Below, piece after piece: positions 1 through 20,000 of a DNA stretch of 20,000 nt. Made by a program: the position numbers and the translations under genes. Under the pieces are notes generated by a model, which searched no databases, was not told the origin of the DNA, and saw only the letters and a program-made list of their open reading frames with translations. The stretch lies in IMG/VR virus record IMGVR_UViG_3300043117_000361; one strand, written 5' to 3'. The stretch comes from an uncultured virus (IMG/VR IMGVR_UViG_3300043117_000361). Its lineage: Duplodnaviria; Heunggongvirae; Uroviricota; Caudoviricetes. Every line of letters starts with the position of its first letter. The stretch's first letter is position 1.

Positions 1-2
1 TA

Positions 3-233
3 ACGGACCTTGAGCAAGAGAACGAAGCCCTGCATAAAGAGGTCTTGCGGTTTGAACTGGAAAACAAACGCCTGAACGGCCTGTACTGCGAGTTGCTGCA
101 TCAGGTCGAAATGAAGTACTCCGACGAATCCCGTCACGAAACAGCGAAACGGATGTTACGCACAGCCCAGCAAAGTATGGGACCAGCGGCGTCAGTTAAC
201 GACAAATCTCAGATTTTGAGCAAAGTGAAATAA
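3..233 (+). CDS. Phage hypothetical protein, 5'-truncated (coiled-coil N-part; YxELLxxVxxKxxDESRHETA motif)
   Basis: Frame is open from base 3; stop lies inside the attC at 194-253. Confidence 0.7.
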   Translation, partial: TDLEQENEALHKEVLRFELENKRLNGLYCELLHQVEMKYSDESRHETAKRMLRTAQQSMGPAASVNDKSQILSKVK

Positions 234-253
234 TCTGGAACGCCTTGTTGGCG
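194..253 (-). repeat. attC site
   Basis: Minus strand: CGCCAAC-AAGGC-GTTCCAGA...TCTGAGA-TTTGTC-GTTAACT. Confidence 0.8.
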
Positions 254-264
254 CAGGAGATAAT

Positions 265-495
265 ATGAAGGTTGGAACATTCGTAAAGGTGAAAAGTGGG
301 GCGTCTACTTGGATGAAGGATCGCGGCTACTGGATAAATGACTGGCCGGAATCCATTGACGGCATGATAGGCGAAATTACCCATGATTATACTGCGTATA
401 AGGGCGACGATTGCCACTACGAGGTCGCGCTGCCCGGCGTAGACGGGTGCGGGATACATCCGCAATGGTTGTCTGTTACCTCCCGATTCACCTGA
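265..495 (+). CDS. Small hypothetical protein, SH3/KOW-like start (MKVGTFVKVK)
   Basis: RBS AGGAG upstream; 76 aa. Confidence 0.75.
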   Translation: MKVGTFVKVKSGASTWMKDRGYWINDWPESIDGMIGEITHDYTAYKGDDCHYEVALPGVDGCGIHPQWLSVTSRFT

Positions 496-603
496 CGAGC
501 GAAATGGAAGTAAATAATGGATAAGAAACATACACAAACTAACACACAGCAAACATCGACAAACCCGCGCGTCCGTCCGGTCAGGTGCAGCCGGTGGTGT
601 GTT
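473..603 (-). repeat. Degenerate attC site
   Basis: Inner arms TTCACCTGAC / GTCAGGTGCA retained; both cores mutated (TAC, GTG). Confidence 0.5.
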
Positions 604-666
604 CGCGGTGTATGGTTGTATGCGGCGACATGGGATGGTGCAGAGGTAAGGGAGGTTTTAGCATGA
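517..666 (+). CDS. 49-aa hypothetical protein starting inside the degenerate attC
   Basis: ATG at 517; ATGA overlap with the next gene at 663-666. Confidence 0.4.
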   Translation: MDKKHTQTNTQQTSTNPRVRPVRCSRWCVRGVWLYAATWDGAEVREVLA

Positions 667-977
667 ATGAACAAAGCGATCGAATGGATACGGCCTCTAC
701 TGATTTGTTGGTATTTCCGGTTCGGCATCACTTTGACTGTTGGATTGACAGGTGCCGAACATGCCTTGATGACCACCTTGCGCTTGCCGAGTATATCCAT
801 GCGGTAACACAGGCCCCGCGTCAGTACCACGATTTTTTGAGAGAGTACCGGACGTGGCTCGACAGCCACGGAATCCCTGCTGAATCAGAGGACGGATGGG
901 CGACGCGGCAGGCTTGGGACAAAGAGAACGTCCATGCGTTCATTTGGGACGTGTGGGGGGTAGATGCCAACGCCTAA
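663..977 (+). CDS. Hypothetical protein
   Basis: GGAGGT RBS before ATG 663; stop lies inside the next attC. Confidence 0.7.
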   Translation: MNEQSDRMDTASTDLLVFPVRHHFDCWIDRCRTCLDDHLALAEYIHAVTQAPRQYHDFLREYRTWLDSHGIPAESEDGWATRQAWDKENVHAFIWDVWGVDANA

Positions 978-1036
978 ATTGAGTTTTCTGAAAGGAGCGA
1001 AGCGAGTGAAAGATAAATTTAAACGTCTTGTTCGGC
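965..1036 (-). repeat. attC site containing stop, RBS and GTG start
   Basis: + strand TGCCAAC-GCCTAA-ATTGAGT...ATTTAAAC-GTCTT-GTTCGGC; AAAGGAG 991-997, GTG 1006. Confidence 0.75.
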
Positions 1037-1485
1037 ATCTGTCTGCGTGGGCGTGGGCGGATGAGATTGAGACAACGAAACAGGCTGGCGGCGTTCTGCG
1101 CTGGAAGTCGGAATACGATTGGTGGCACTGGTACGTCGTTGAGGTCGGGACGAAAGGTGGACATTGGATTGGAAGTCACGCCGATCCGATGGTCCGAAAG
1201 GCGTGGGATGCCGCAAGGGAACGTATGCCGAACGCACACTTTAGCGGCGCGGTTTCCGCGTCTGTTCCAAGCGATCATTGGGTTTCTTTTAATGTCTGGC
1301 ACGCTGATAGTCACCCACCATTCAGCGCACCTTTGATTTGCAAGGTTCTGCATTATCGCACAGATCGAATAACCGAGGATAAGATGACACTAGAGGAACC
1401 GACCGATCCTCGGTTTTGCTTCTCCAATAACAGCGAACTTGACGAAAGCAAAACTCGTGTTATTGCGTGGAAACTCAATAACTAG
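1006..1485 (+). CDS. Hypothetical protein, apparent fusion of two cassettes through an internal attC
   Basis: RBS and GTG start lie in the attC loop; reads through 1227-1283 as PNAHFSGAVSASVPSDHW. Confidence 0.65.
   Translation: MKDKFKRLVRHLSAWAWADEIETTKQAGGVLRWKSEYDWWHWYVVEVGTKGGHWIGSHADPMVRKAWDAARERMPNAHFSGAVSASVPSDHWVSFNVWHADSHPPFSAPLICKVLHYRTDRITEDKMTLEEPTDPRFCFSNNSELDESKTRVIAWKLNN
1227..1283 (-). repeat. Degenerate attC site inside a CDS
   Basis: GCCGAAC...ATTGGGT; left core ATGCCGAAC is the exact complement of GTTCGGCAT at 1030. Confidence 0.55.
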
Positions 1486-1531
1486 CTCAACTTCGGAGCG
1501 AAGCGGAGTAAGCTGGAGCGCCTTGTTGGGC
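1473..1531 (-). repeat. attC site (family A)
   Basis: Minus strand GCCCAAC-AAGGC-GCTCCAGC...GTTGAGC-TAGTT-ATTGAGT; near-identical to 5088-5147. Confidence 0.85.
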
Positions 1532-1557
1532 GTTCCGTAACATAAAGGAGAAAAGCG

Positions 1558-1776
1558 ATGAACGAAAAAAAGTACATGATTGATGACGAACCGGCCAGCG
1601 CGAATGACATCATTCGCAAGGCGAAGGAACTGGACACGGATTACGGGTCGGACGGCTTCTGTCAGACCAGCGTGGCCGCAGATGTTTTGCAGCGGAACGG
1701 GTTTTCGGTCTGGCACAACCCTGATTATACGCCCAACGCCGGAAGTGACGATCAGAATGAAGGGAGCGAAGAATGA
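1558..1776 (+). CDS. Hypothetical protein (cassette)
   Basis: AAGGAG RBS; C-terminus PNAGSDD... is translated attC. Confidence 0.8.
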   Translation: MNEKKYMIDDEPASANDIIRKAKELDTDYGSDGFCQTSVAADVLQRNGFSVWHNPDYTPNAGSDDQNEGSEE

Positions 1777-1814
1777 GCGAGCGAAATGAGGTAGCGTCCA
1801 CTTCTTTGTTGGAC
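1731..1814 (-). repeat. attC site with ATGA stop/start overlap in its loop
   Basis: + strand GCCCAAC-GCCGGA-AGTGACG...CGTCCACT-TCTTT-GTTGGAC. Confidence 0.85.
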
Positions 1815-1970
1815 GATTTGCGCGACTTGAAGCGCGAACTTGAGGTTGCGAAAAACAGTCAACTGGCTGGTCCGGATGGACGCGCCGCGTTCACATCCTG
1901 CCTTGGGTCTGTGAACATGATTCTCGATAAACACGATACGTCCAACGCAGCAATGACGGGCGGCGAATAG
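1773..1970 (+). CDS. Hypothetical protein (cassette)
   Basis: Starts inside one attC and ends inside the next. Confidence 0.7.
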   Translation: MSERNEVASTSLLDDLRDLKRELEVAKNSQLAGPDGRAAFTSCLGSVNMILDKHDTSNAAMTGGE

Positions 1971-1997
1971 CCGTACCGTCGATTGGCCTTGTTGGGC
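1940..1997 (-). repeat. attC site
   Basis: GTCCAAC..AATGACGG...CCGTCGATT..GTTGGGC. Confidence 0.8.
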
Positions 1998-2024
1998 ACG
2001 TACCGCAAGGCCGGAAAGGACAAC

Positions 2025-2267
2025 ATGAGATCAATTCAGGAAGGCGACATTGTATGTGTTAACTTCAACAATGCACAGTACACGCTTTGCAGTCGGGCCA
2101 AGGTACTACACACGCCCTCGGCAACGGGCGACTCGTGGTACTTTCAGGACATGGAGACAAAAAAAGAATGGGCGGTCAGCGAGGGATGCACGATTACGCT
2201 GATAGAGCCTCATATGCCCAACGCAGAGTTGACCGGATCGAAACAGCCAGAGAAAGGCACAGCATGA
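2025..2267 (+). CDS. Small SH3-like hypothetical protein, TPxATGDSW family
   Basis: AAGGA RBS; similar to the N-half of 3283..3690. Confidence 0.8.
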   Translation: MRSIQEGDIVCVNFNNAQYTLCSRAKVLHTPSATGDSWYFQDMETKKEWAVSEGCTITLIEPHMPNAELTGSKQPEKGTA

Positions 2268-2318
2268 ACCAAACACCGCAAGCGGCTGTTTCGGGTACGG
2301 TCGGACGCCTTGTTCGCC
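2216..2318 (-). repeat. attC site with ATGA overlap in its loop
   Basis: GCCCAAC..GTTGACCG..CGAAACAGCC...GGCTGTTTCG..CGGTCGGAC-GCCTT-GTTCGCC. Confidence 0.85.
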
Positions 2319-2500
2319 CTTCCGGGGTGAGCATTGAGATGATGGAGTTTGCCCGTCCGCAAGACGATGATCTGTGGCACTGGGCAAACAACCTGAACGC
2401 CATGCTGCACTCGGGCTACTGCAAGAAGTGCGGCCTCACGCCGAACGGATGCCGCAACGAAGGCTGTAGGGCTAACGGAAAGGATGACACTCCGAAATGA
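2264..2500 (+). CDS. Hypothetical protein with CxxC...CxxxxC motif (cassette)
   Basis: ATGA-coupled at both ends. Confidence 0.7.
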   Translation: MNQTPQAAVSGTVGRLVRPSGVSIEMMEFARPQDDDLWHWANNLNAMLHSGYCKKCGLTPNGCRNEGCRANGKDDTPK

Positions 2501-2549
2501 GTAAGCGAAGCGCGACGAATGAAGGTAGTTGTCCATCCGCTTGTTCGAC
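2470..2549 (-). repeat. attC site (family D) with ATGA overlap
   Basis: GGCTAAC..GGATGACA...TGTCCATCC..GTTCGAC. Confidence 0.85.
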
Positions 2550-2709
2550 ATGCCCCGCGCTGGAGCTGGTGCGGGCAATCGTCGAGATGACCGAGGGACA
2601 AGCAGACATCGACAAGCGCAGCATTGTGCGCCCCGGCGTTACGCTGGGAAGGGAATCACGCCGCATACTCGCTCGTCTGTCGAACGCCGAGCATGACACT
2701 CGGCATTGA
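2497..2709 (+). CDS. Hypothetical protein (cassette)
   Basis: ATGA overlap; both termini are attC-derived. Confidence 0.6.
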   Translation: MSKRSATNEGSCPSACSTCPALELVRAIVEMTEGQADIDKRSIVRPGVTLGRESRRILARLSNAEHDTRH

Positions 2710-2751
2710 AGCGAAGCGAAAATGACGCAGTTGTCCATGCTTTTGTTGGGC
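2679..2751 (-). repeat. attC site (family D)
   Basis: GTCGAAC..GCATGACA...TGTCCATGC..GTTGGGC. Confidence 0.85.
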
Positions 2752-2770
2752 ATGGACGGGAAGGAAAACG

Positions 2771-2923
2771 ATGAAATTGAACCACTTGATTCTGATAGGT
2801 GACGCGGTGGAGAAAATCCACGAACTGACAAACACAGACATTCCTGACATCGTAGACGCCCTTACTGGTGTTGCTTGGGACGAAGAGGACGCGGGGCAAA
2901 TCAAAGCGTATCACGCTGGCTAA
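2771..2923 (+). CDS. 50-aa hypothetical protein (MKLNHLILIGDAVEKIHEL...)
   Basis: AAGGA RBS; fills the cassette; below the ORF-track length cutoff. Confidence 0.65.
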   Translation: MKLNHLILIGDAVEKIHELTNTDIPDIVDALTGVAWDEEDAGQIKAYHAG

Positions 2924-2931
2924 GATTATAT

Positions 2932-3003
2932 GCCCAATGCAGCGCTCACCGTCGGGGCTCAAGCTCCGAGCGAAGCGAGGTAGATTGAAGCCCTTTGTTG
3001 GGG
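2932..3003 (-). repeat. attC site (family B), apparently chimeric at its left end
   Basis: Body near-identical to 5653-5712; preceded by a GCCCAAT-GCAGC-GCTCACC remnant. Confidence 0.8.
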
Positions 3004-3020
3004 CTGGATTGGAGGACAAG

Positions 3021-3194
3021 ATGACATACGTGAGTGTTGACTACAAGGGCAGAGCGCACATTGCCGACGCGGAATTGCTGGACGACTACAAGGCTGGCGT
3101 GCTGGAGGATGGCGGCGTGCTGCTGCGGATCGACGGCGAGACGGTGAGCCAGTACACGGGCAATGGCGACAATGAATGGGAAGAACTTTACTAG
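3021..3194 (+). CDS. 57-aa hypothetical protein (cassette)
   Basis: GGAGG RBS before ATG 3021. Confidence 0.75.
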   Translation: MTYVSVDYKGRAHIADAELLDDYKAGVLEDGGVLLRIDGETVSQYTGNGDNEWEELY

Positions 3195-3195
3195 C

Positions 3196-3256
3196 CCCAA
3201 ACGCTGCAAAGCAGTCTCGCAGCGGTAGCAAGTAGGCTCGATTTGTCTTGTTGGGT
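3196..3256 (-). repeat. attC site
   Basis: CCCAAAC..AAAGCAGTCT...AGGCTCGATTT-GTCTT-GTTGGGT. Confidence 0.7.
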
Positions 3257-3282
3257 TTCCCAGCAAGGCGGGAAGGAACAAG

Positions 3283-3690
3283 ATGAAAAACAGGATTGAG
3301 AAGGACGACAGGGTGCTGGTGGTTTTCGCCAGCGACGGATCGAGTTTGCGCGGAGTGGTGGACTACACGCCGCAAGCGACAGGTGACTCGTGGGTGATTG
3401 TGCAAGACGATGGCACCGTCAACTATGTTCAGATGTTTGAGACGATGCAACTCGTTGGTAAACCCAACGCTGGCGGTGACGCTTCGGCGTACTCGCCGAT
3501 AGCATCCACTGCTTTGTTGTCTGTCCCGTCCAACACCATTGTGACGTGTGCCAACTGCGGCAACGAGTACGAGGTTCATTACACTGAGCCGTTCGACAAG
3601 GCTGGGGAAGGTAGACGCATCTGCGTGGATTGTTGCGAGGGACTTGGGCCAGAAGACCTGCCATGCGGCATCAGTACAGACAACAACTAG
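3283..3690 (+). CDS. Two-cassette fusion protein: SH3-like ATGDSW domain plus CxxC...CxxC zinc-binding domain
   Basis: AAGGA RBS; internal attC 3462-3522 is translated as the linker PNAGGDASAYSPIASTALLS. Confidence 0.75.
   Translation: MKNRIEKDDRVLVVFASDGSSLRGVVDYTPQATGDSWVIVQDDGTVNYVQMFETMQLVGKPNAGGDASAYSPIASTALLSVPSNTIVTCANCGNEYEVHYTEPFDKAGEGRRICVDCCEGLGPEDLPCGISTDNN
3462..3522 (-). repeat. attC site read through in frame
   Basis: ACCCAAC-GCTGGC-GGTGACGCT...AGCATCCACT-GCTTT-GTTGTCT. Confidence 0.85.
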
Positions 3691-3734
3691 CTCAAGCGTA
3701 GCGAAGCGGAGTCGCTTGCTGCATTTTGTTGGCA
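3678..3734 (-). repeat. attC site (family C)
   Basis: Near-identical to 6495-6553. Confidence 0.8.
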
Positions 3735-3754
3735 ATCTGAATAAGGAGAGAAGA

Positions 3755-3997
3755 ATGAGTGAAATGAATTGGAAGCGATTGAATAAGGAACAACTGGCGA
3801 TACTGGATCACACGGCACACCGGGCCGCTGGTGGGCTGTATTGCGGGGACAGCCCCGACATGCAAAAGCTGATCGAGGCTGGGCTGATGGTGTCGGCGGG
3901 CTGCAAGTCGTTCGTGCCGGATGAGTATTTCCGTATGACGGACAAAGGACACGAAGTGCTGCGGGAAGCATGCCGCCCCAGCTATGGAGGTGAGTGA
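3755..3997 (+). CDS. Small winged-helix-like protein
   Basis: AAGGAG RBS; MQKLIEAGLM...YFRMTDKGHEVL resembles a wHTH C-terminal motif. Confidence 0.7.
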   Translation: MSEMNWKRLNKEQLAILDHTAHRAAGGLYCGDSPDMQKLIEAGLMVSAGCKSFVPDEYFRMTDKGHEVLREACRPSYGGE

Positions 3998-4049
3998 ATG
4001 ACAGTGGAGCTAAGCGTAATTGACAGTATGCTCGATCGTCTTGTTGGCA
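3976..4049 (-). repeat. attC site (left core AGC) containing RBS, stop and start
   Basis: CCCCAGC-TATGGA-GGTGAGT...GCTCGATC-GTCTT-GTTGGCA. Confidence 0.7.
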
Positions 4050-4270
4050 TCATTCGGCGCGAGCAGTTTGACCCAGAGAAGGGGCCTCCTTCGATACGTC
4101 GATTAGCCCGCCTCACGCGCAGGCAGCAGAAGGACGTGCTGGAAGAGTGCGTAGACGCGGACTTGTGCGTAAACATCGGCATCCAGTGTGGTGGCGTGAT
4201 TGGGGTGTTTGATCGCATTGGTGACTACACCGTGGAAGACCTGACGGTAGATTACCAACGCCGAGTGTGA
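3998..4270 (+). CDS. Hypothetical protein (cassette)
   Basis: GGAGG RBS, TGAATG junction; ends in an attC half-site at 4253. Confidence 0.7.
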   Translation: MTVELSVIDSMLDRLVGIIRREQFDPEKGPPSIRRLARLTRRQQKDVLEECVDADLCVNIGIQCGGVIGVFDRIGDYTVEDLTVDYQRRV

Positions 4271-4355
4271 GGTTCAGATATGGGCGCAGTTAAGAAGAAG
4301 TAGACATCGTCACGCGGATTATTTTTTAAATGAATAATGAAGTGAAAGGGATAAA

Positions 4356-4499
4356 ATGGTAAATTCCAAACAATTTATAGCCGTGCGTATAATTATGATC
4401 GCGCTCACATTTCTTATTAACGTAGCAGTTATCGCTGGCGCTGTGTGGCTGGTGGTTAATGTGCTTCAATGGCTTTATATTCTTTTAAAAACCGTATAA
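4356..4499 (+). CDS. 47-aa predicted membrane peptide
   Basis: AAAGGG RBS; long hydrophobic stretch IIMIALTFLINVAVIAGAVWLVVNVL; AT-rich. Confidence 0.6.
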   Translation: MVNSKQFIAVRIIMIALTFLINVAVIAGAVWLVVNVLQWLYILLKTV

Positions 4500-4538
4500 A
4501 ATTAAAAGCCATCCCGTGATCGGGCGCATCTTGGATGT

Positions 4539-4641
4539 TGTGAGCGCCACAAATCAAGGGCAGTTGCCCTAAGGAGTAAACCATGAGTGATGTAGAAAAC
4601 GCGAGCGGGGCGCAAGTACCCACTCAATGCGACTGTTCGGT
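4539..4641 (-). repeat. Degenerate attC containing RBS and ATG
   Basis: GGGCAGTTGCCC...GGGCGCAAGTACCC arms, right core GTTCGGT. Confidence 0.45.
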
Positions 4642-4765
4642 ATTGCGAGCGGCGTTACGCGGGCTGCTTGAATGTCGCTGTGAAGCAAACACCGGACAAT
4701 GTTGCGAGCACGTCAAGGCGGCAGAACAAGCGTTAATGAACAATAAAACAGGAGAGCCAAAATGA
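4583..4765 (+). CDS. Hypothetical Cys-rich protein
   Basis: AAGGAG RBS; ATGA overlap with the next gene. Confidence 0.65.
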   Translation: MSDVENASGAQVPTQCDCSVLRAALRGLLECRCEANTGQCCEHVKAAEQALMNNKTGEPK

Positions 4766-5127
4766 CGGCCAGGCTGACGGTCAAGAAATTGATTACTGAG
4801 TTAATGAGCATGGACCCGGATATGGATGCAGAACGTGCCCTTTCGGATATACGCACCGACACCTTGTTGGGTTTTAACGAGGAAAGTAATGAGATGAATA
4901 TACCATGCGACTGCGGAAATGAAAAAGCGTATTGGAAAGGAGATAGGTGCGGATTGCGAATATACGCCTGTGCAGAATGCCATGCGTACAACAGCGGGCT
5001 TGAAACAGCGGCCGGTCTCATTGAAGAAGGATGCAGCAACGAAGATGATAAAGCTGTGCTGCTTTGCGGAGTTTTATCTTCTAAGAAACTCAACGATCAA
5101 GCTCAGCTTCGGAGCGAAGCGGAGTAA
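4762..5127 (+). CDS. Hypothetical protein with CxC...CxxC zinc-ribbon-like motif
   Basis: GGAG RBS; stop lies inside the attC. Confidence 0.7.
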   Translation: MTARLTVKKLITELMSMDPDMDAERALSDIRTDTLLGFNEESNEMNIPCDCGNEKAYWKGDRCGLRIYACAECHAYNSGLETAAGLIEEGCSNEDDKAVLLCGVLSSKKLNDQAQLRSEAE

Positions 5128-5147
5128 GCTGGAGCACCTTGTTGGGC
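5088..5147 (-). repeat. attC site (family A), textbook architecture
   Basis: Minus strand GCCCAAC-AAGGT-GCTCCAGC-TTACTCCGCTTCGCTCCGAA-GCTGAGC-TTGATC-GTTGAGT. Confidence 0.92.
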
Positions 5148-5588
5148 TTTTAGAGCACGTTGCAATTCAGAGAGGAGCGGGCGCCAGTCTGCTGCGGCGT
5201 CGCCAATCGGCATCAATTCGTCCGGTATGTTGTCCAGGCTTACCGGGAGGCCGAGCGCCTCCTGCAGAGCCAAGGCGGATTCCATAGTATCGAATTCGTC
5301 AGTACCGTCGGCGACGTCGACGTTAGTCCAGTTTCCTGGGTTGAAACTTTCGCCCCATTCCTTACGCATGGCGGCTAGAACCTTCTGTTCAAAGTTCGGA
5401 TCCAGGCGAAAATCGGGCATCACCGGCGGCGTGTAAGTAGGCGCTTGGGGACGCTGTTTTGGGCGTCCGAGTCCCAAAAAGGCCCTCTTCTCAAACACCT
5501 CCGCAAGCCCCTGGGCGTACGCCTGCTTCAGGTGTCCGGACACGTTGCGTTGTTGTGCAACTTTAATTCCAAGTTCATATGGTGTCAT
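5103..5588 (-). CDS. K-x-A-leader protein with an acyl carrier protein-like domain (pantetheine Ser replaced by Glu)
   Basis: AGGAG RBS 7 nt before ATG; GTDEFDTMESALALQEALG aligns by eye to ACP GADSLDTVELVMALEEEF. Confidence 0.65.
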   Translation of the reverse strand: MTPYELGIKVAQQRNVSGHLKQAYAQGLAEVFEKRAFLGLGRPKQRPQAPTYTPPVMPDFRLDPNFEQKVLAAMRKEWGESFNPGNWTNVDVADGTDEFDTMESALALQEALGLPVSLDNIPDELMPIGDAAADWRPLLSELQRALKAQQGAPAYSASLRS

Positions 5589-5652
5589 AACGAGACTCCT
5601 ATTAAAGGTCAAACACGAGCGAAGAATACCACAGGAGGCTGGCGGATGTCAA

Positions 5653-5712
5653 GTTCAACGCCGGGGCTCAAGCTCCGAGCGAAGCGAGGTAGATTGCAGC
5701 CCTTTGTTGGGG
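5653..5712 (-). repeat. attC site (family B)
   Basis: GTTCAAC-GCCGGG-GCTCAAG...ATTGCAGC-CCTTT-GTTGGGG. Confidence 0.85.
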
Positions 5713-5729
5713 CAAAAATGGAGGACAGG

Positions 5730-5921
5730 ATGGACAAGACGGCAGAACTGATTGTTGATGCGATAGTGACCGACTTCACCGACAGGCGCGGGTTGCGGCA
5801 AGAGTGGGAACAGATCGACGAGAAGATTCAGAACGAAATCAAGGGCGAGTGGATGCGCCTTGTGCGCGAGATTCTTGGTCGCCCCAACGCCGGAGTTCAC
5901 ACTCCGAGCGAAGCGAGGTAG
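5730..5921 (+). CDS. 63-aa phage hypothetical protein (DRRGLRQEWEQID motif)
   Basis: GGAGG RBS; C-terminus is attC-derived. Confidence 0.8.
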   Translation: MDKTAELIVDAIVTDFTDRRGLRQEWEQIDEKIQNEIKGEWMRLVREILGRPNAGVHTPSEAR

Positions 5922-5943
5922 TTTGTGAAACGATTTGTTCGGA
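5882..5943 (-). repeat. attC site
   Basis: CCCCAAC-GCCGGA-GTTCACA...TGTGAAAC-GATTT-GTTCGGA. Confidence 0.9.
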
Positions 5944-6034
5944 ATCAGGCACGGGTAGGCAAACCTGACGGGCGTATGGCTGGCTGCTTGGGGTTCGATT
6001 CCCCGATGCCCGTTCCCATGCCGGGGTGCCTGAT
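5944..6034 (+). ncRNA. Putative tRNA-like mini RNA (acceptor stem plus T-arm) occupying a whole cassette
   Basis: CGGGCGT/ATGCCCG stem stacked on TGGGG-TTCGATT-CCCCG; closed by ATCAGGCAC/GTGCCTGAT; no credible ORF. Confidence 0.5.
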
Positions 6035-6113
6035 GCCGAACGCACAAGCTGACCATCAAAAAAGGAGCGAAGTATGAGCGGATTTTTTGTAGCGGTCCAG
6101 CGCCTTGTTGGGC
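6035..6113 (-). repeat. attC site containing RBS and ATG
   Basis: GCCGAAC-GCACAA-GCTGACC...GGTCCAGC-GCCTT-GTTGGGC. Confidence 0.9.
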
Positions 6114-6304
6114 GCATGGTTGGACGCTGTAAATGTGGCAAGTTTGTTCCTAATTGGGGCAAACTCCACGCATCATGTAAGCATGCGGCCCTGAATGGCG
6201 TTGCCATCAGTTTGCCAGCAATACGGTATTGCCCGTGGTGTGGCTGTCGTGTGCCGCCCAATGCCGGAAATCAGGGGCATGTGCCCCAGGGAGAACGATC
6301 ATGA
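6074..6304 (+). CDS. Small zinc-ribbon-like protein (CxC...YCPWCG)
   Basis: AAGGAG RBS in the attC loop. Confidence 0.75.
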   Translation: MSGFFVAVQRLVGRMVGRCKCGKFVPNWGKLHASCKHAALNGVAISLPAIRYCPWCGCRVPPNAGNQGHVPQGERS

Positions 6305-6356
6305 GTAACACGAAACGCACAGCGGGGCACATGTCCCCTGAATTGACTTGTTATCC
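6256..6356 (-). repeat. attC site with ATGA overlap in its loop
   Basis: GCCCAAT-GCCGGA-AATCAGGGGCATGTGCCCC...GGGGCACATGTCCCCTGAATT-GACTT-GTTATCC. Confidence 0.8.
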
Positions 6357-6507
6357 AAAATGCGAAGACTGCCTGCACTGGCGGGACGAGCTATGTCATT
6401 TTGCGTCTCCGTTTTTGGCACGTCGTGAAACGCAACGCAAACGCCCGATCAAGCCAAAAAGCCTGAACTGCGGTATTGAAGGAAAGAACTTTATCGCGAA
6501 CAACTAG
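6301..6507 (+). CDS. Small Cys-rich protein (CxDCxHW...C...CGxEGKNF)
   Basis: GGAG RBS; ATGA overlap. Confidence 0.75.
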   Translation: MSNTKRTAGHMSPELTCYPKCEDCLHWRDELCHFASPFLARRETQRKRPIKPKSLNCGIEGKNFIANN

Positions 6508-6553
6508 CTCAAGCGCGTAGCGAAGCGGAGTCGCTTGCTGCGCCTTGTTGGAG
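6495..6553 (-). repeat. attC site (family C)
   Basis: Near-identical to 3678-3734. Confidence 0.8.
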
Positions 6554-6566
6554 GCGTATATTGACA

Positions 6567-6707
6567 ACTTTGAGACAGGGATCGGGTCGCAGGTTCGAGT
6601 CCTGCCGGACAAGGGCAACGGGACGCCGTTCGCAGCTTTGCCACTGCGTGTGCGCACACGATTGACCGATGCCGGGCGGCATGACTCGTCCCTTTGTCTC
6701 TGAAAGT
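6567..6707 (+). ncRNA. Putative structured RNA with a T-loop hairpin
   Basis: Closing stem ACTTTGAGACAGGGATCGGGTC / GACTCGTCCCTTTGTCTCTGAAAGT; GCAGG-TTCGAGT-CCTGC at 6589-6605. Confidence 0.45.
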
Positions 6708-6718
6708 GAGGTTTAGGA

Positions 6719-6991
6719 GTGAGTGAGCAAAGAAAGCGAATAAAGGCAACAGCCCAGCGCTTTGCCCGTCAGTCTCGGGCACTGTCCGCAATGCGGTCAA
6801 CCGGCTCAGACCTGCGGCAGTACCGCAATGAATCAGCGGCCTGGTATGTTTGGCATCCAACCGCATACCGTGTGCGATTGAAATTAACATGTCGAGACGT
6901 GTTGCTCATGGTAACTGATGGCAGGCTATGCGCTCCGCAGCAAGATGAGTGTCGCGGGCATTATCTGCCCAACAGTGCGGTACATGTATAA
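6719..6991 (+). CDS. Hypothetical basic protein
   Basis: ORF track; start codon uncertain; ends in an attC half-site (PNSAVHV). Confidence 0.55.
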   Translation: MSEQRKRIKATAQRFARQSRALSAMRSTGSDLRQYRNESAAWYVWHPTAYRVRLKLTCRDVLLMVTDGRLCAPQQDECRGHYLPNSAVHV

Positions 6992-7031
6992 ACTGCGAAC
7001 GATAAGAAGAAAGAACAAAAGGAGAACAGTA

Positions 7032-7589
7032 ATGCAGAAGATTATCAGCTTGTTTCAGAGAAATTATGAGACGGATAGACTCGTGAGGGATGAAGTCGTA
7101 CCAGGTGCTGAATGGGTACTGAACGGTGAAGGCACCGCAACTCGGAAGTGGGACGGGATGTGCTGCATGGTGCGTAATGGACAACTGTTCAAGCGATATG
7201 AAGTGAAGCGAGGTAAGGCCTTTCCGCCTGACTTTGAGCCTGCTTGCGATATTGACCCGAATACGGGCAAGCAGCAGGGATGGCGTCCGGTTGGAGACGG
7301 GCCGGAAGACCGCTGGTTCCGTGAAGCGTTTACCGGGGAAGAACCGGACGGCACTTATGAACTGATTGGGCCAAAGGTGCAAGGCAACCCAGAAGGATTT
7401 AACTCGCATACGCTCGTTCCGCACGGTCAGCATCCCGTTGCCGCACCACGCACCTTCGACAAACTGCGGGAGTGGTTCAAGGGACCGGGGAGCGATATCG
7501 AGGGCGTGGTATGGTGGCACGACGATGGACGAAAGGTGAAGATCAAGGCCAAGGACTTCGGGATTCGCCGTGTTGCCAACCAGCGATAA
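7032..7589 (+). CDS. RNA ligase-like nucleotidyltransferase (DUF5565/RLIG1-like)
   Basis: Motif I TRKWDG, III TYELIG, IV EGVVW, V KIKAKDF; AAGGAG RBS. Confidence 0.8.
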   Translation: MQKIISLFQRNYETDRLVRDEVVPGAEWVLNGEGTATRKWDGMCCMVRNGQLFKRYEVKRGKAFPPDFEPACDIDPNTGKQQGWRPVGDGPEDRWFREAFTGEEPDGTYELIGPKVQGNPEGFNSHTLVPHGQHPVAAPRTFDKLREWFKGPGSDIEGVVWWHDDGRKVKIKAKDFGIRRVANQR

Positions 7590-7609
7590 TTAATAAAAAA
7601 GAGCGAAAA

Positions 7610-7906
7610 ATGAGCGAATATTGCAAAAACTGTAAAGAACTACAGGATAAAATAGATAACATTAGAACTATAGTTTCTAATAGAACCATGCTTGAGCAGC
7701 TGGATGCGTTCAAGTTGTACGACGCTTTTCTCACATTAATGTCCGGAATAAATATGTTTTCGGCAGATAATCTGAGGCGCGTTCGTGACGAGATAAAATA
7801 TGTGTCACAATATGAAAATGAGGATGAGCATCTTGTTTATATGGCACGCAGCATTATAGTCGCGCTGGAAACTGAAATAGGCTCACGGAAAGATTGTGGA
7901 AACTAG
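7610..7906 (+). CDS. Hypothetical protein (N-terminal CxxC)
   Basis: ATG 7610 in the track ORF frame; AT-rich. Confidence 0.65.
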   Translation: MSEYCKNCKELQDKIDNIRTIVSNRTMLEQLDAFKLYDAFLTLMSGINMFSADNLRRVRDEIKYVSQYENEDEHLVYMARSIIVALETEIGSRKDCGN

Positions 7907-17847: not shown

Positions 17848-18519
17848 GTGTCCGATCCTAACTTACCAGACAGATATGCTGATTTATATCGTACGTTTGA
17901 TAAAGGGCATGATCTAAACCACATAAAATCAGTTAGAGATCGCGCTTCAGTACTCTCGTCCAAATATGCTCCCGATAAATCTGATCTTATTGATCTTGCA
18001 GCCGCTCTTCACGATGTAGGAATATCCAGAGGACGCGATAATCACCCTGAACACGGCTATAGTATGCTGAAAGAGGACAAGGATATAAGAAACAGGATTT
18101 CTAATAGAGATTTCAATCTTCTTTTAGAGGCAGTAAGAGAGCATGGAGCTTCATCGGGGCGCCCTGAATCTACAGTTGCCAGAATAGTGAGCGACGCCGA
18201 TAAAACAGCTGAAAAAGACCCTTATGATTCTATTTTACGTGCTTACAATTATGGTAAATCTCACTTTCCCTCCATGACCGATGATCAACAGGTTCGGCGG
18301 GCTGTTGATCACATAGTGGACAAGTACAGCCAAGGAGGCTACGGCTCTAATGTGTTCTTTCCTGAATCAAGAGATATTCTTGAGAAAAGGACGGAGGCTG
18401 CCAGAGCTCTTCAGAAAATGCAGGACATACGTGAGATAAAAAGTAAACTAGGTATCAACAGTAAGTCCGCTCATTTTCTTGGACATGCGCTTGGAACTCT
18501 TTCTTTTTTAGGTTTGTGA
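17848..18519 (+). CDS. HD-domain phosphohydrolase
   Basis: GH...H, AAALHDVG, NH..HG, VREH, VSDADK. Confidence 0.85.
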   Translation: MSDPNLPDRYADLYRTFDKGHDLNHIKSVRDRASVLSSKYAPDKSDLIDLAAALHDVGISRGRDNHPEHGYSMLKEDKDIRNRISNRDFNLLLEAVREHGASSGRPESTVARIVSDADKTAEKDPYDSILRAYNYGKSHFPSMTDDQQVRRAVDHIVDKYSQGGYGSNVFFPESRDILEKRTEAARALQKMQDIREIKSKLGINSKSAHFLGHALGTLSFLGL

Positions 18520-18589: not shown

Positions 18590-18934
18590 ATGCGTGCAGC
18601 ACATTTTTCTAGGCTCAATTCGAGCCGCACAGATAGGGAACTCACAGAGGCGAAAAAAATGGGACTTTCTGATGTTGTCCCATGCACCCTGTGTCCCCGA
18701 GACCCCGACGGGTACGTGGCCGTGATACTGGACACGTGCTCCAGAGGGTTTAAAGGTGTCTTTGATGCAATTCTGCTCAAAGACTGCAGCCCGGCGGAGC
18801 TCAGCAAACTGATCCGGGCCAGCAAACAGGAACGGGAAGGGAAAACCATTCCCGTATTCTTATGGGACCCACACGAGAAGCAGTGGTGTTCCATCTGTGA
18901 ATTAAAAAATAGGAGGTACCATGAAGACCTATGA
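18590..18934 (+). CDS. Hypothetical protein
   Basis: GGAGGT RBS. Confidence 0.7.
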   Translation: MRAAHFSRLNSSRTDRELTEAKKMGLSDVVPCTLCPRDPDGYVAVILDTCSRGFKGVFDAILLKDCSPAELSKLIRASKQEREGKTIPVFLWDPHEKQWCSICELKNRRYHEDL

Positions 18935-19286
18935 GGTCAAAATATCCACCAGACACCAGGGGTTGGTGGATTGGCTTGCCCGCCGTGGGATAAGGGGGCA
19001 AGGACTGGCATATCCCACAAGAGAAGATGTGCTAGGGCATGTAATTGTAGGAACATTGCCCTACCATTTGGCGGAGGCGGCTGCTGCCGTCGTGTCGGTA
19101 GAGTTGACTCTTTCTACGGAAATGCTGGATAGAGAGTTAACATGTACCGATGTTGCTGCTGCAAACCCTAAGGCCACTGCATACGTAGTAACCAAAATAA
19201 GGAGCAGAATCCGTCCTACGTGTAAAACCGGATCCTGGGGTTTGTGGACCGCCAGAGAACTGGTGGCAAAGATAAACAGTAAGTAA
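18921..19286 (+). CDS. csx16: Csx16-like (VVA1548 family) protein, putative cOA ring nuclease
   Basis: TRHxGLVDWLxxxGI...VIVGTLPYHLA...RELTxxD motifs; AGGAGG RBS. Confidence 0.75.
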   Translation: MKTYEVKISTRHQGLVDWLARRGIRGQGLAYPTREDVLGHVIVGTLPYHLAEAAAAVVSVELTLSTEMLDRELTCTDVAAANPKATAYVVTKIRSRIRPTCKTGSWGLWTARELVAKINSK

Positions 19287-19892: not shown

Positions 19893-20000
19893 ATGTGCGA
19901 TTTCATAAGTTGGATTGAAAAAGATAACAAACTTTTTTACTTAACAGATAAAGAGGTCTTCTCTGCCCAGGGCAGAGAAAAATTCTCAGGGTGTCGTGAC
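19893..20000 (+). CDS. Phage hypothetical protein, 3'-truncated (MCDFISWIE...)
   Basis: AAGGAGG RBS; open to the window end. Confidence 0.7.
   Translation, partial: MCDFISWIEKDNKLFYLTDKEVFSAQGREKFSGCRD

Follow-up and report, generated by a model that had tools for sequence, protein, structure and literature searches.

A jumbo-phage contig of 111.7 kb (111,747 bp) was found to carry a 28-site array of attC-type hairpins that mirrors the layout of bacterial cassette arrays and is wired into translation. Integrons are a bacterial device to store and reshuffle genes; in the phage array the genes lie on the strand that corresponds to the attC bottom strand, and most of them read in one fixed frame into the following hairpin. 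We consider it reasonably probable that the array is a phage CALIN (at least two nearby attC sites with no integrase close by) whose cassettes are exchanged through integron-integrase cleavage, likely by a host IntI. The window, as used below, is the whole stretch of 20,000 nucleotides of this contig that was analysed.

Extent and structure of the array

The hairpins were modelled with R1, a structure-aware covariance model trained on 23 hairpins of the array, which was more sensitive than an nhmmer profile. R1 matched 28 copies in the contig, all of them on the + strand of the window in one 9.3-kb block (window positions -2712 to 6553), and scores on the reverse strand were 12-13 bits vs 68-81 bits on the forward strand. 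Inside the window there are 18 matches at E<=0.1, between 194 and 6553, while the array runs on for 2.7 kb to the left of the window with 10 further matches. The motif YTTGTTSG is present in 31 copies on the window strand of the contig, 25 of which fall between -2303 and 6544, and in only 4 copies on the other strand. By eye alone, one more full element (2470..2549) and three degenerate ones (666-713, the left half only at 4253 to about 4300, and 4835-4872) were recognised, which together with the R1 matches agrees with the about 19 complete and 3 degenerate palindromes of the first-pass annotation. It is therefore confirmed that the repeats are real, lie where they had been placed and recur far beyond chance. 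Searches of the elements for tRNAs and for Rfam families gave no match, window positions 1-7700 had no DNA similarity to phage GenBank records, a further scan of viral sequences, for which the conserved right block was the query, gave 0 matches, and no array was present in any of 11 loci around RNA-ligase homologues.

Short-class elements on the + strand include those at 194..253 (54.3 bits, E 4.7e-11; bottom strand on +), 1473..1531 (67.6 bits), which is followed by a conserved leader and ribosome-binding site (RBS), and 1940..1997 (30.3 bits), with a 3' bulge in the strict scan and a DNA fold z of -3.13. In the long class, element 965..1036 (18.5 bits, E 0.018) is where gene 663-977 stops and where gene 1006-1485 starts, with a GTG codon. 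An ATGA stop/start overlap lies in the loop of five elements: the long-class elements 1731..1814 (37.3 bits; overlap at 1773-1776), 2216..2318 (20.6 bits; 2264-2267), 6035..6113 (32 bits; 6074-6077) and 6256..6356 (19.9 bits, E 0.0085; 6301-6304), and the attC-like element 2470..2549 (2497-2500), which had no R1 match at E<=1. Also on the + strand are the attC-type elements 2679..2751 (23.8 bits, E 0.001), 2944..3003 (58 bits), whose left core is degenerate (ACC for AAC), 3196..3256 (51.7 bits), 3462..3522 (40.2 bits), where translation reads through in frame and fuses two cassette ORFs into 3283-3690, and 3678..3734 (50.1 bits), followed by a weak attC-like element at 3976..4049 (15.4 bits, E 0.1) with a TGA/ATG junction at 3995-4000. 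From the gene calls and a reading of the sequence, the + strand stretch 4253..4872 is disrupted and consists of the left half of a site at 4253, a short site at 4835-4872 that is degenerate and, between them, AT-rich DNA in which two small genes lie (4356-4499 and 4583-4765); the GC content of 4001-5000 is 0.485. The top match in the window is element 5088..5147 (76.8 bits, E 1.9e-16), after which come 5653..5712 (65.5 bits), 5882..5943 (55.6 bits) and the final element of the array, 6495..6553 (61.3 bits), all on the + strand.

Across 23 aligned elements the core consensus is nCCCAAC...GTTGGGC, with AAC and GTT invariant or nearly so. As in attC sites, inverted core sites (RYYYAAC and GTTRRRY) stand at the two ends of the element, a second inverted pair (the L boxes) with an extra base on one arm lies inside them, and the centre and length are variable, with elements of 56-106 nt. 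The total length of attC sites is roughly 57-141 bp. AAC/GTT pairs form in 22-23 of the 23 elements, the unpaired spacers between the cores and the L boxes are 4-6 nt long, and in all seven strictly scanned phage sites it is the 3' arm of the + strand that carries the bulged base. The strict regular-expression scan for attC was too insensitive for counting (4 of about 30 phage elements pass) and served for the side of the bulge only. In the proposed hairpin 81.4% of the cells are paired, compensatory changes occur in 12 of 16 pairs, including all nine pairs of the L helix, and none of 500 shuffles was as good; the hairpin is thus supported by covariation. Compensatory changes, together with kept unpaired spacers and a one-sided bulge, reveal selection on the folded structure and not merely on sequence identity. 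The stability of single-hairpin folds is unremarkable (z +0.24 to -3.13 in five elements, both strands folded), with energies mostly no better than those of shuffles.

Polarity and phage context

The polarity of the elements was determined by applying R1 to bacterial integrons. IntI above the curated cut-off is present in 80 of 401 Planctomycetota genomes, and in 346 kb flanking Planctomycetota intI genes R1 found 11 sites at E<0.01. In the class 1 control, the dfrA17-aadA5 array of plasmid NZ_CP064254.1, it detected one of the two attC sites: the aadA5 attC was matched antisense to aadA5 (31.9 bits, E 6.8e-7), and the dfrA17 attC was missed. In bacterial arrays, 14 of 17 R1 matches contain the end of an antisense ORF, whereas in phage arrays 29 of 34 contain that of a sense ORF. 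The bulge of the strict scan is on the 5' arm in the three bulged sites of intI-oriented bacterial arrays. As R1 lies antisense to the cassette gene at bona fide bacterial sites, it models the attC bottom strand, and as the phage genes are on that same strand, the phage array is inverted. These comparisons show that the elements are attC-type sites and that their canonical orientation is on the minus strand, with the genes reversed relative to them, as the first-pass annotation had proposed.

The canonical layout of a top-strand ORF followed by its own attC is limited to a single gene, the orphan 5103..5588, which was identified by its ORF and RBS and, again as had been claimed, is the only cassette gene on the minus strand. 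It forms a textbook cassette running from 5658 to 5094 on that strand, with its stop within its own 3' attC (element 5088..5147 read on the minus strand) and a sigma-70-like promoter before it at 5652-5623 (10 of 12 matches). Only three homologues were found, which share the first 36-38 residues or a fragment.

The contig itself is that of a phage, with a large terminase, split RNA polymerase subunits, UvsX, DnaB and other markers, and the phage genes on both flanks of the array lie on the same strand as the array (80 of the 91 ORFs that encode 130 aa or more). The phage context described in the first-pass annotation therefore holds; its head-protease operon rests solely on a weak PHROG match (E 8e-4). 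The split RNA polymerases resemble those of nucleus-forming jumbo phages. Arrays are present in two further phage records. With one related contig binned in a Planctomycetota genome and the R1 matches in that phylum, the only one searched, a Planctomycetota host can be suggested tentatively; a run of R1 over 151 Planctomycetota genomes, with 36 candidates scored per genome, matched three genomes and is uninformative on the host.

No integrase was detected on the contig, as had been stated: the 111.7-kb contig, which is 57% complete, has neither TIGR02249 nor a Phage_integrase domain (PF00589) at E<=1, and the intI with adjacent attI and Pc of a complete integron was not found, so that the 9.3-kb block has its 28 sites on a contig that lacks a detected integrase. 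PF00589 had no match in the two other phage records (G002 and G403), both incomplete. When ten ORFs from Planctomycetota intI loci, at least two of them taken from the wrong strand, were searched by tblastn against the contig and 32 other array-bearing loci (L116 not included), the best E was 0.18. A Y1 HUH transposase is in none of the three phage records, and a serine recombinase occurs only in this contig among them, as part of an IS607-like element. The proposed shuffling by a host IntI or a distantly encoded tyrosine recombinase thus found no enzyme to match it in the array-bearing phage records, which are all incomplete (20-60%).

Cassette genes, the frame rule and unit boundaries

The cassette set of the phage is formed by about thirty tiny genes. 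In the window, about 20 small cassette genes encoding 47-159 aa were called between 265 and 6507, on the + strand and with RBS-like sequences before their starts. Nearly all of the proteins are orphans: at E<=0.01, Pfam gave three weak matches on 2 of 20 proteins, all under the curated cut-off, PHROGs also gave three weak matches among them, and a viral scan with protein 1006-1485 returned no relatives. A gene common to the window and another phage, 2264..2500 on the + strand, is under purifying selection, as it differs from its homologue in phage L116 by 10 synonymous and 3 non-synonymous codons (3/1/9 differences by codon position).

The genes are tied to the hairpins by a frame rule. Among 72 elements, 62 are preceded by an open frame of 40 codons or more, and in 55 of these 62 AAC is an in-frame codon of the upstream gene, so that the hairpin supplies the C-terminal tail and stop of that gene. 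In 21 canonical bacterial-type cassettes there are only 7 such ORFs, with frames of 2/3/2 and no bias.

The expectation that cassettes vary among related arrays was borne out, with single units common to different phages in differing neighbourhoods. Window 2220-2476 and L116 3001-3257 are 88% identical between unrelated flanks; this unit, of which element 2216..2318 is the 5' part, starts at AAC and ends at the next RYYYAAC. Loci L076 and L080 have in common a 233-bp unit (96% identity) that ends exactly at GCCCAA^, and a metagenome contig joins the body of element 2944..3003 (loose ends 2950 and 3002) to a second context at ...TAA|C. These three cases show unit boundaries at the left core site, RYYYAA^C, where the flanking homology is only 3-7 nt and the core itself 7 nt. 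Two other junctions (L013/L073 and L079/L083) have their breakpoint not at the left core but on the left border of the conserved right-arm block; in the former, identity of 99.5% is found only rightwards from ...CTGGAGCGCCTTGTTGGGC, and the latter behaves likewise. A diverged copy of element 6256..6356 lies in another metagenome context (loose ends 6267 and 6352), and at the left edges of the 6267 context and of the L076/L080 unit the 3 nt right after AAC differ too. As the break lies within the conserved right arm in two of the five junctions that are informative, homologous recombination also contributes or competes.

Many metagenome runs keep the same cassette order, which recurs in independent contigs of several runs that each cover many cassettes, for example 453-2987 and 2958-5691. 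Contigs of four runs had no cassette-skipping joint, and positions 7113-7600 were uncovered in runs X9 and X13; as contigs break at repeats, both absences are uninformative. The three joints listed from metagenome runs are explained by repeats left of the window.

Proposed mechanism, alternatives and related systems

In the explanation that we favour, the first base of a mobile unit is the C of the core site RYYYAA^C on the bottom strand, and the unit carries, in order, the attC body, an RBS with a start codon, and a small ORF usually without a stop of its own, ending at the RYYYAA of the following site. The RBS and start lie in the hairpin loop, which is then enlarged, or 20-35 nt past the right core, and the next cassette gives a short C-terminal tail and a stop, often as an ATGA overlap. 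Since AAC is read as a codon where upstream ORFs pass through the junction, any following cassette supplies the tail and stop, and units can therefore be reshuffled without breaking translation. Exchange would take place via integron-integrase cleavage of the folded bottom strand. In the phage this strand is the coding (non-template) one, and it is probably also the template of lagging-strand synthesis. The text of PMC13108822 reports that recombination is about 1000-fold more efficient with the bottom strand of attC than with the top one, and that in Vibrio excision climbs from <7e-5 to 3e-2 when the bottom strand is on the lagging-strand template. We infer that this replication argument applies to the phage array and that exchange is active at present. 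The enzyme would be encoded off the contig, with a host IntI acting in trans as the most economical source; DNA shielding by the phage, if present, might bar the host enzyme from the array.

Another explanation, which we regard as unlikely, is that the attC-derived hairpins are now short homology linkers, and that a conserved module of about 92 nt (attC, leader and RBS) mediates swaps between co-infecting phages through phage homologous recombination with no integron integrase, a scheme like that of the promoter-stem-loop cassettes of T4-type phages. Many matches of about 92 nt (79-90% identity), which cover an element and around 30 nt of leader, do link otherwise unrelated contigs, the phage has a UvsX-like recombinase, an SbcCD-like nuclease and a Holliday-junction resolvase, the three phage records have no site-specific recombinase in common, and the identity of L013/L073 and L079/L083 starts in the conserved right block. 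However, the homology at the three left-core boundaries is too short for homologous exchange, and the signs of selection on the folded structure also speak against simple linkers. It could also be that the hairpins chiefly act in mRNA processing, stability or translational coupling and that their likeness to attC is ancestry with no present recombination, as they are always on the sense strand, carry stops, ribosome-binding sites, start codons and the five ATGA overlaps, and are tied to translation by the frame rule. We find this improbable, because an RNA hairpin does not need the (near-)invariant AAC and GTT cores, the stems have no excess of RNA-type G.U pairing on the sense strand (12 G.T vs 15 A.C), no Rfam family was matched, and the units that pass between phages are single cassettes delimited by the core site. 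Intrinsic terminator-like sites number 10 vs 7.5 +/- 3.3 expected, and only one of the ten overlaps an element. A bacterial chromosomal integron piece that is carried passively, or was mis-assembled onto phage DNA, would fit with the related contig binned in a Planctomycetota genome and with the close attC relatives that bacterial-looking contigs have in canonical cassettes (L086, which carries a methyltransferase, and L087, which carries a TIR gene); it is nonetheless very improbable given the phage genes on both flanks, the unchanged order in independent contigs from several runs, the gene orientation and frame rule unlike those of bacterial arrays, and the arrays in two other phage records.

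Returning to integrase-mediated exchange, it is possible, and we put it forward tentatively, that the array belongs to a mirror-image phage integron economy, in which 5'-attC-RBS-ORF units lie on the recombining strand, are probably moved by the same host integrase and are translatable in any order. The attC sites would be the same as those of bacterial integrons, ORFs without stops would be completed in frame by the next attC, and the bottom strand would be on the exposed coding/lagging-template strand, for high shuffling rates in infection. Stray bacterial cassettes, such as 5103-5588, would be antisense and need their own promoter, and phage cassettes taken up by bacteria would be silent. 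If true, phages use integron recombination chemistry for a fast-changing library of small early genes, which is a likely place for trading counter-defence genes. The array also offers a natural test of what sets gene orientation relative to attC and of how strand exposure governs cassette dynamics, and suggests a route for cassettes between phage and host gene pools.

Among known systems, the sedentary chromosomal integrons, including those of Planctomycetota, resemble the phage array in their long arrays, small mostly orphan genes and mutually similar attC sites with the same core motifs, spacers and one-sided bulge, and the one canonical cassette of the phage array (5658 to 5094, minus strand) has their layout. 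Unlike them, the phage contig has no detected intI, attI or Pc, its attC is 5' of the gene on the coding strand, and its ORFs enter the next attC in a fixed frame. The aadA5 attC of class 1 cassettes is recognised by the phage-derived R1, but on the strand antisense to the gene, whereas in the phage it is the sense strand. Published phage integron examples have few sites each. The text of Qi, Rajabal, Ghaly, Tetu and Gillings 2023 (PMC9892861) describes 17 CALINs, each with two or more attC sites, from virulent as well as temperate phages; IntI1 recombined five of the six phage sites that were tested there, and the cassettes of two phages share one direction, which is the typical layout of bacterial arrays. 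That text does not contain the word "opposite", and its supplementary tables may list larger arrays. Like these CALINs, the present array has attC sites and cassettes with no integrase nearby; it differs in having 28 sites in 9.3 kb, about ten times the size of those small published examples, genes on the bottom-strand side and the in-frame junction rule.

The promoter-stem-loop cassettes of T4-type phages and the start-associated sequences of mycobacteriophages are, like the elements here, short repeats at gene junctions in hyperplastic small-gene regions that are thought to promote modular shuffling and are not attC-like. Unlike them, the elements of the present array have integron core motifs and are detected by a model that also detects real attC sites.

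Structure and extent of the repeats

A large attC cassette array with a mirror-image layout is genuinely present in this jumbo-type phage, and the window carries part of it. An imperfect palindrome is repeated through positions 194-6553, and on the + strand each element consists of ..CCAAC, a spacer, a stem, a loop (often with GAGCGAAGCG), the second stem with one extra base, another spacer and YTTGTTGG... The right-hand motif, searched as YTTGTTSG, was found in 31 copies on the window strand of the whole contig and in 4 on the opposite strand. A single block from -2303 to 6544 (negative positions lie left of the window) holds 25 of the 31, and the array extends approximately 2.7 kb leftward beyond the window.

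The hairpin was examined in an alignment of 23 elements (57-62 nt) from the phage contig and two related loci. It was modelled as a 7-bp outer helix formed by the two core motifs, unpaired spacers of 5-6 nt, and a 9-bp inner helix with a single-base bulge in its 3' arm. Paired cells amounted to 81.4%, compared to 69.0% in shuffles, and compensatory changes were present at 12 of the 16 pairs. The covariation score of 0.333 (0.133 in shuffles) was reached by none of 500 shuffles and collapsed when the partners were slid by 1-3 columns. Mispairs among the 360 cells showed no RNA-type bias (12 G.T and 15 A.C). The DNA fold energies of single elements were unimpressive, with z from +0.24 to -3.13 for five elements on both strands, therefore the evidence for the hairpin structure is comparative and not thermodynamic.

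A covariance model of the attC bottom strand, R1, was built from the 23 elements. At E<=0.1 it identified 28 sites, 18 of them within the window and the other 10 in the adjoining 4 kb to the left. All are on the + strand; scored on the reverse strand, the best of these sites reach 12-13 bits versus 68-81. Searching the whole contig gave 27 matches at E<=1, all of which were on the window + strand within contig positions 27713-36978. Visual inspection alone added one complete element (2470-2549) and three that are degenerate. The AT-rich stretch at 4270-4760 (GC about 0.49 per kb versus 0.55 around it) runs from a left half-site to the next element and encodes a 47-aa hydrophobic and a 60-aa Cys-rich protein; it resembles an insertion that disrupted an attC. 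Short stretches resembling a tRNA T-arm are located inside a cassette at 5985-6010 (GGGGTTCGATTCCCC) and just past the last attC at 6583-6612 (GCAGGTTCGAGTCCTGC), and neither ARAGORN nor Rfam detected a tRNA at these positions.

The elements are attC sites inverted relative to their genes

As one related contig was binned in Planctomycetota, genomes of this phylum were sampled, and TIGR02249, the integron integrase model, was above its curated cut-off in 80 out of 401. In 346 kb around the Planctomycetota intI genes, R1 gave 11 matches at E<0.01, the best with 49.3 bits. When the array was upstream of intI the match was on the intI strand, and when it was beyond the 3' end of intI the match was on the opposite strand. 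In every intI-linked array inspected, the cassette ORFs were antisense to the R1 strand and ended at the site. A class 1 integron annotated in RefSeq served as an independent control: R1 recovered its aadA5 attC at 31.9 bits (E 6.8e-7), antisense to the aadA5 gene, and missed the dfrA17 attC of the same control array. The polarity of R1 at the bacterial arrays and at aadA5 shows that the window + strand is the attC bottom strand, and it is this strand that bears the phage genes.

The ends of ORFs of at least 45 aa were also counted at R1 sites. At the bacterial sites (n=17), an antisense ORF ended in the element in 14 and a sense ORF in 6. At the phage loci (n=34), a sense ORF ended in the element at 29 sites and began in or just past it at 25; antisense ORFs ended in the element at 15 of the 34, although many of these are spurious and the DNA is GC-rich. 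A strict motif scan placed the bulge on the 3' arm in all seven phage sites and on the 5' arm in all three bulged sites of the bacterial intI-oriented arrays. Four more bacterial calls were bulge-free, three of them representing one hairpin. The ORF-end counts, the aadA5 control and the bulge scan agree, and the proposal of the first-pass annotation that the cassette genes are inverted relative to the polarity of their attC sites holds.

Clusters of attC sites without an integron integrase (CALINs) have been described in phages by Qi et al. 2023, who reported 17 phage CALINs, each with at least two attC sites, and recombination by IntI1 of five of the six phage attC sites tested (PMC9892861). 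The inverted gene layout is a feature of the array described here, whereas none is described for the phage CALINs in PMC9892861. Nothing closer was found among the papers listed by full-text searches of the literature on attC sites or CALINs in phage genomes, viral contigs and jumbo phages.

The cassette junctions follow a frame rule, in which the AAC of the left core is read in frame. Of the 72 elements examined, 62 were preceded by an open frame of 40 or more codons. The AAC was read as a codon of that frame in 55 of these 62 (..P/A-N-A/D..), with a stop 2-18 codons further on and still inside the element in 51 of the 55. The AAC was off frame by +1 in six cases and by +2 in one. Among canonical bacterial-type cassettes (n=21, each read on its coding strand), the core was crossed by only 7 ORFs, with frames distributed 2/3/2. 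The long elements (72-106 nt) have an enlarged loop that accommodates both the ribosome-binding site and the start of the following gene; five of those in the window show an ATGA stop/start overlap (1773, 2264, 2497, 6074 and 6301). For the short elements, the gene begins 20-35 nt past the right core, behind a conserved leader. Element 3462-3522 has no in-frame stop and fuses two cassette ORFs.

Cassette exchange and the proposed recombinase

Arrays of the same elements were found in L012, a phage contig with a terminase 45% identical to that of our contig, in L013, a phage-like contig with a helicase and DUF2800 that was binned in a Planctomycetota genome, and in L116, a third viral record (six R1 matches). 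A further 30 metagenome contigs, some of which duplicate others, gave 59 complete R1 matches at E<=0.01 and one cut at a contig end. A few of these contigs carry cassettes of the canonical bacterial type whose attC sites are very similar; examples are a methyltransferase gene that enters a 73-bit site from the opposite strand (L086) and a TIR-domain gene (L087).

Five comparisons of homology ends were informative. Window positions 2220-2476 match L116 3001-3257 at 88% identity between unrelated flanks, the match running from the AAC of the left core to the next RYYYAAC. The tail AELTGSKQPEKGTA from element 2216-2318 is joined to a different upstream gene in L116. Between the contigs L076 and L080, a common 233-bp unit (96% identity) runs from the left core to exactly after GCCCAA, and another metagenome contig has other sequence to the left of the body of element 2950-3002, with the join at ...TAA|C. 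These three boundaries are consistent with exchange at the canonical cleavage point of the bottom strand (RYYYAA^C), and they define a mobile unit composed of the attC body, the leader and the gene. In the comparisons L013 with L073 and L079 with L083, the sequences become identical only from the conserved right-arm block (..GGAGCGCCTTGTT..) onwards, and to its left the attC bodies differ; these junctions fit top-strand events or homologous exchange in a conserved module of about 92 nt. The cassette gene shared by the window and L116 differs at 10 synonymous and 3 non-synonymous codons, with differences of 3/1/9 by codon position. This synonymous excess and the codon-position pattern indicate that the gene is real.

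The cassettes had been proposed to form a shuffled library, and comparing their order among relatives and metagenome contigs supported this in part. Single units lie in unrelated flanks (window and L116, L076 and L080), but contigs of four oil-field metagenome runs contained long array stretches in the same order, with no joint that skips a cassette. Repeats lying left of the window explain the three joints reported in these contigs.

No IntI or Phage_integrase domain (E<=1) was found in our contig, or in the L012 (41 kb) and L116 (52 kb) records, both fragments. When ten ORFs from intI loci, at least two of them wrong-strand picks, were searched with tblastn against the contig and 32 other array-bearing loci (not including L116), the best E was 0.18. 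The earlier claim that the array is without an integrase thus stands for the contig as searched for IntI and Phage_integrase, the contig being a 57% fragment. The three phage records, all fragments, contained no Y1 transposase, and a serine recombinase was present only in our contig, within an IS607-like element.

Exchange is proposed to depend on an integron integrase working on the folded bottom strand, most economically one supplied in trans by the host. Its location on the coding strand may leave the bottom strand exposed. GC skew is positive across the whole window, which would fit the bottom strand being the lagging-strand template. The bottom strand has been shown to recombine about 1000-fold better than the top, and in Vibrio cholerae excision rose from below 7e-5 to 3e-2 when bottom strands were made to lie on the lagging-strand template (PMC13108822).

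Cassette cargo and the phage genome

When 20 cassette proteins were compared with Pfam at E<=0.01, three matches on two proteins were obtained, all under the curated cut-offs, and PHROG gave three weak matches. Two cassettes, 2025-2267 and 3283-3470, encode paralogous small proteins with a common ..TGDSW.. motif and similar leaders, both ending in ..PNA at the core site. The only gene in canonical cassette orientation is on the minus strand at 5103-5588, within a textbook cassette running from 5658 to 5094, and has its stop inside its own attC. Just upstream is the best sigma-70-like site of the region (5623-5652, minus strand; 10/12 matches), with TTGACA, an 18 nt spacer, TG and TATTCT. The protein encoded by 5103-5588 is an orphan, of which only the first 36-38 residues recur, at 78-79% identity, at the N-termini of two otherwise different proteins, one with LysM; this similarity suggests a shared N-terminal module.

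The source record is a linear IMG/VR virus contig of 111,747 bp (completeness estimate 57%), and it is a large phage. PHROG matches include a large terminase, split RNA polymerase beta-type subunits, a UvsX-like recombinase, a DnaB-like helicase, a primase, a ribonucleotide reductase, an SbcCD-like nuclease, RNA and DNA ligases, and an IS607-like serine recombinase with TnpB. The window + strand carries 80 of the contig's 91 non-overlapping ORFs of at least 130 aa. The IS607-like recombinase and TnpB are located at 68726-70337 of the contig, and another TnpB-like gene, standing alone, is encoded on the opposite strand at 55083-56441. A small RNA ligase lies directly 3' of the array (window 7032-7589; phrog_14301, E 6e-68), and a 723-aa RNA ligase/phosphatase fusion is encoded at contig positions 97112-99283. 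Just left of the array, at about -3999 to -3200 (L071 3200-4000), tandem repeats of ~100 nt build a gene encoding a ..W.QLL...PTN.DLRY.. motif. Towards the right end of the window, four large ORFs without Pfam matches precede genes for an HD-domain protein (17848-18519) and a Cas_VVA1548-domain protein (18921-19286, E 4e-13). The window and the genome record disagree at 22 positions (9468; 19916-19995), nearly all of them within the final 85 bases of the window.
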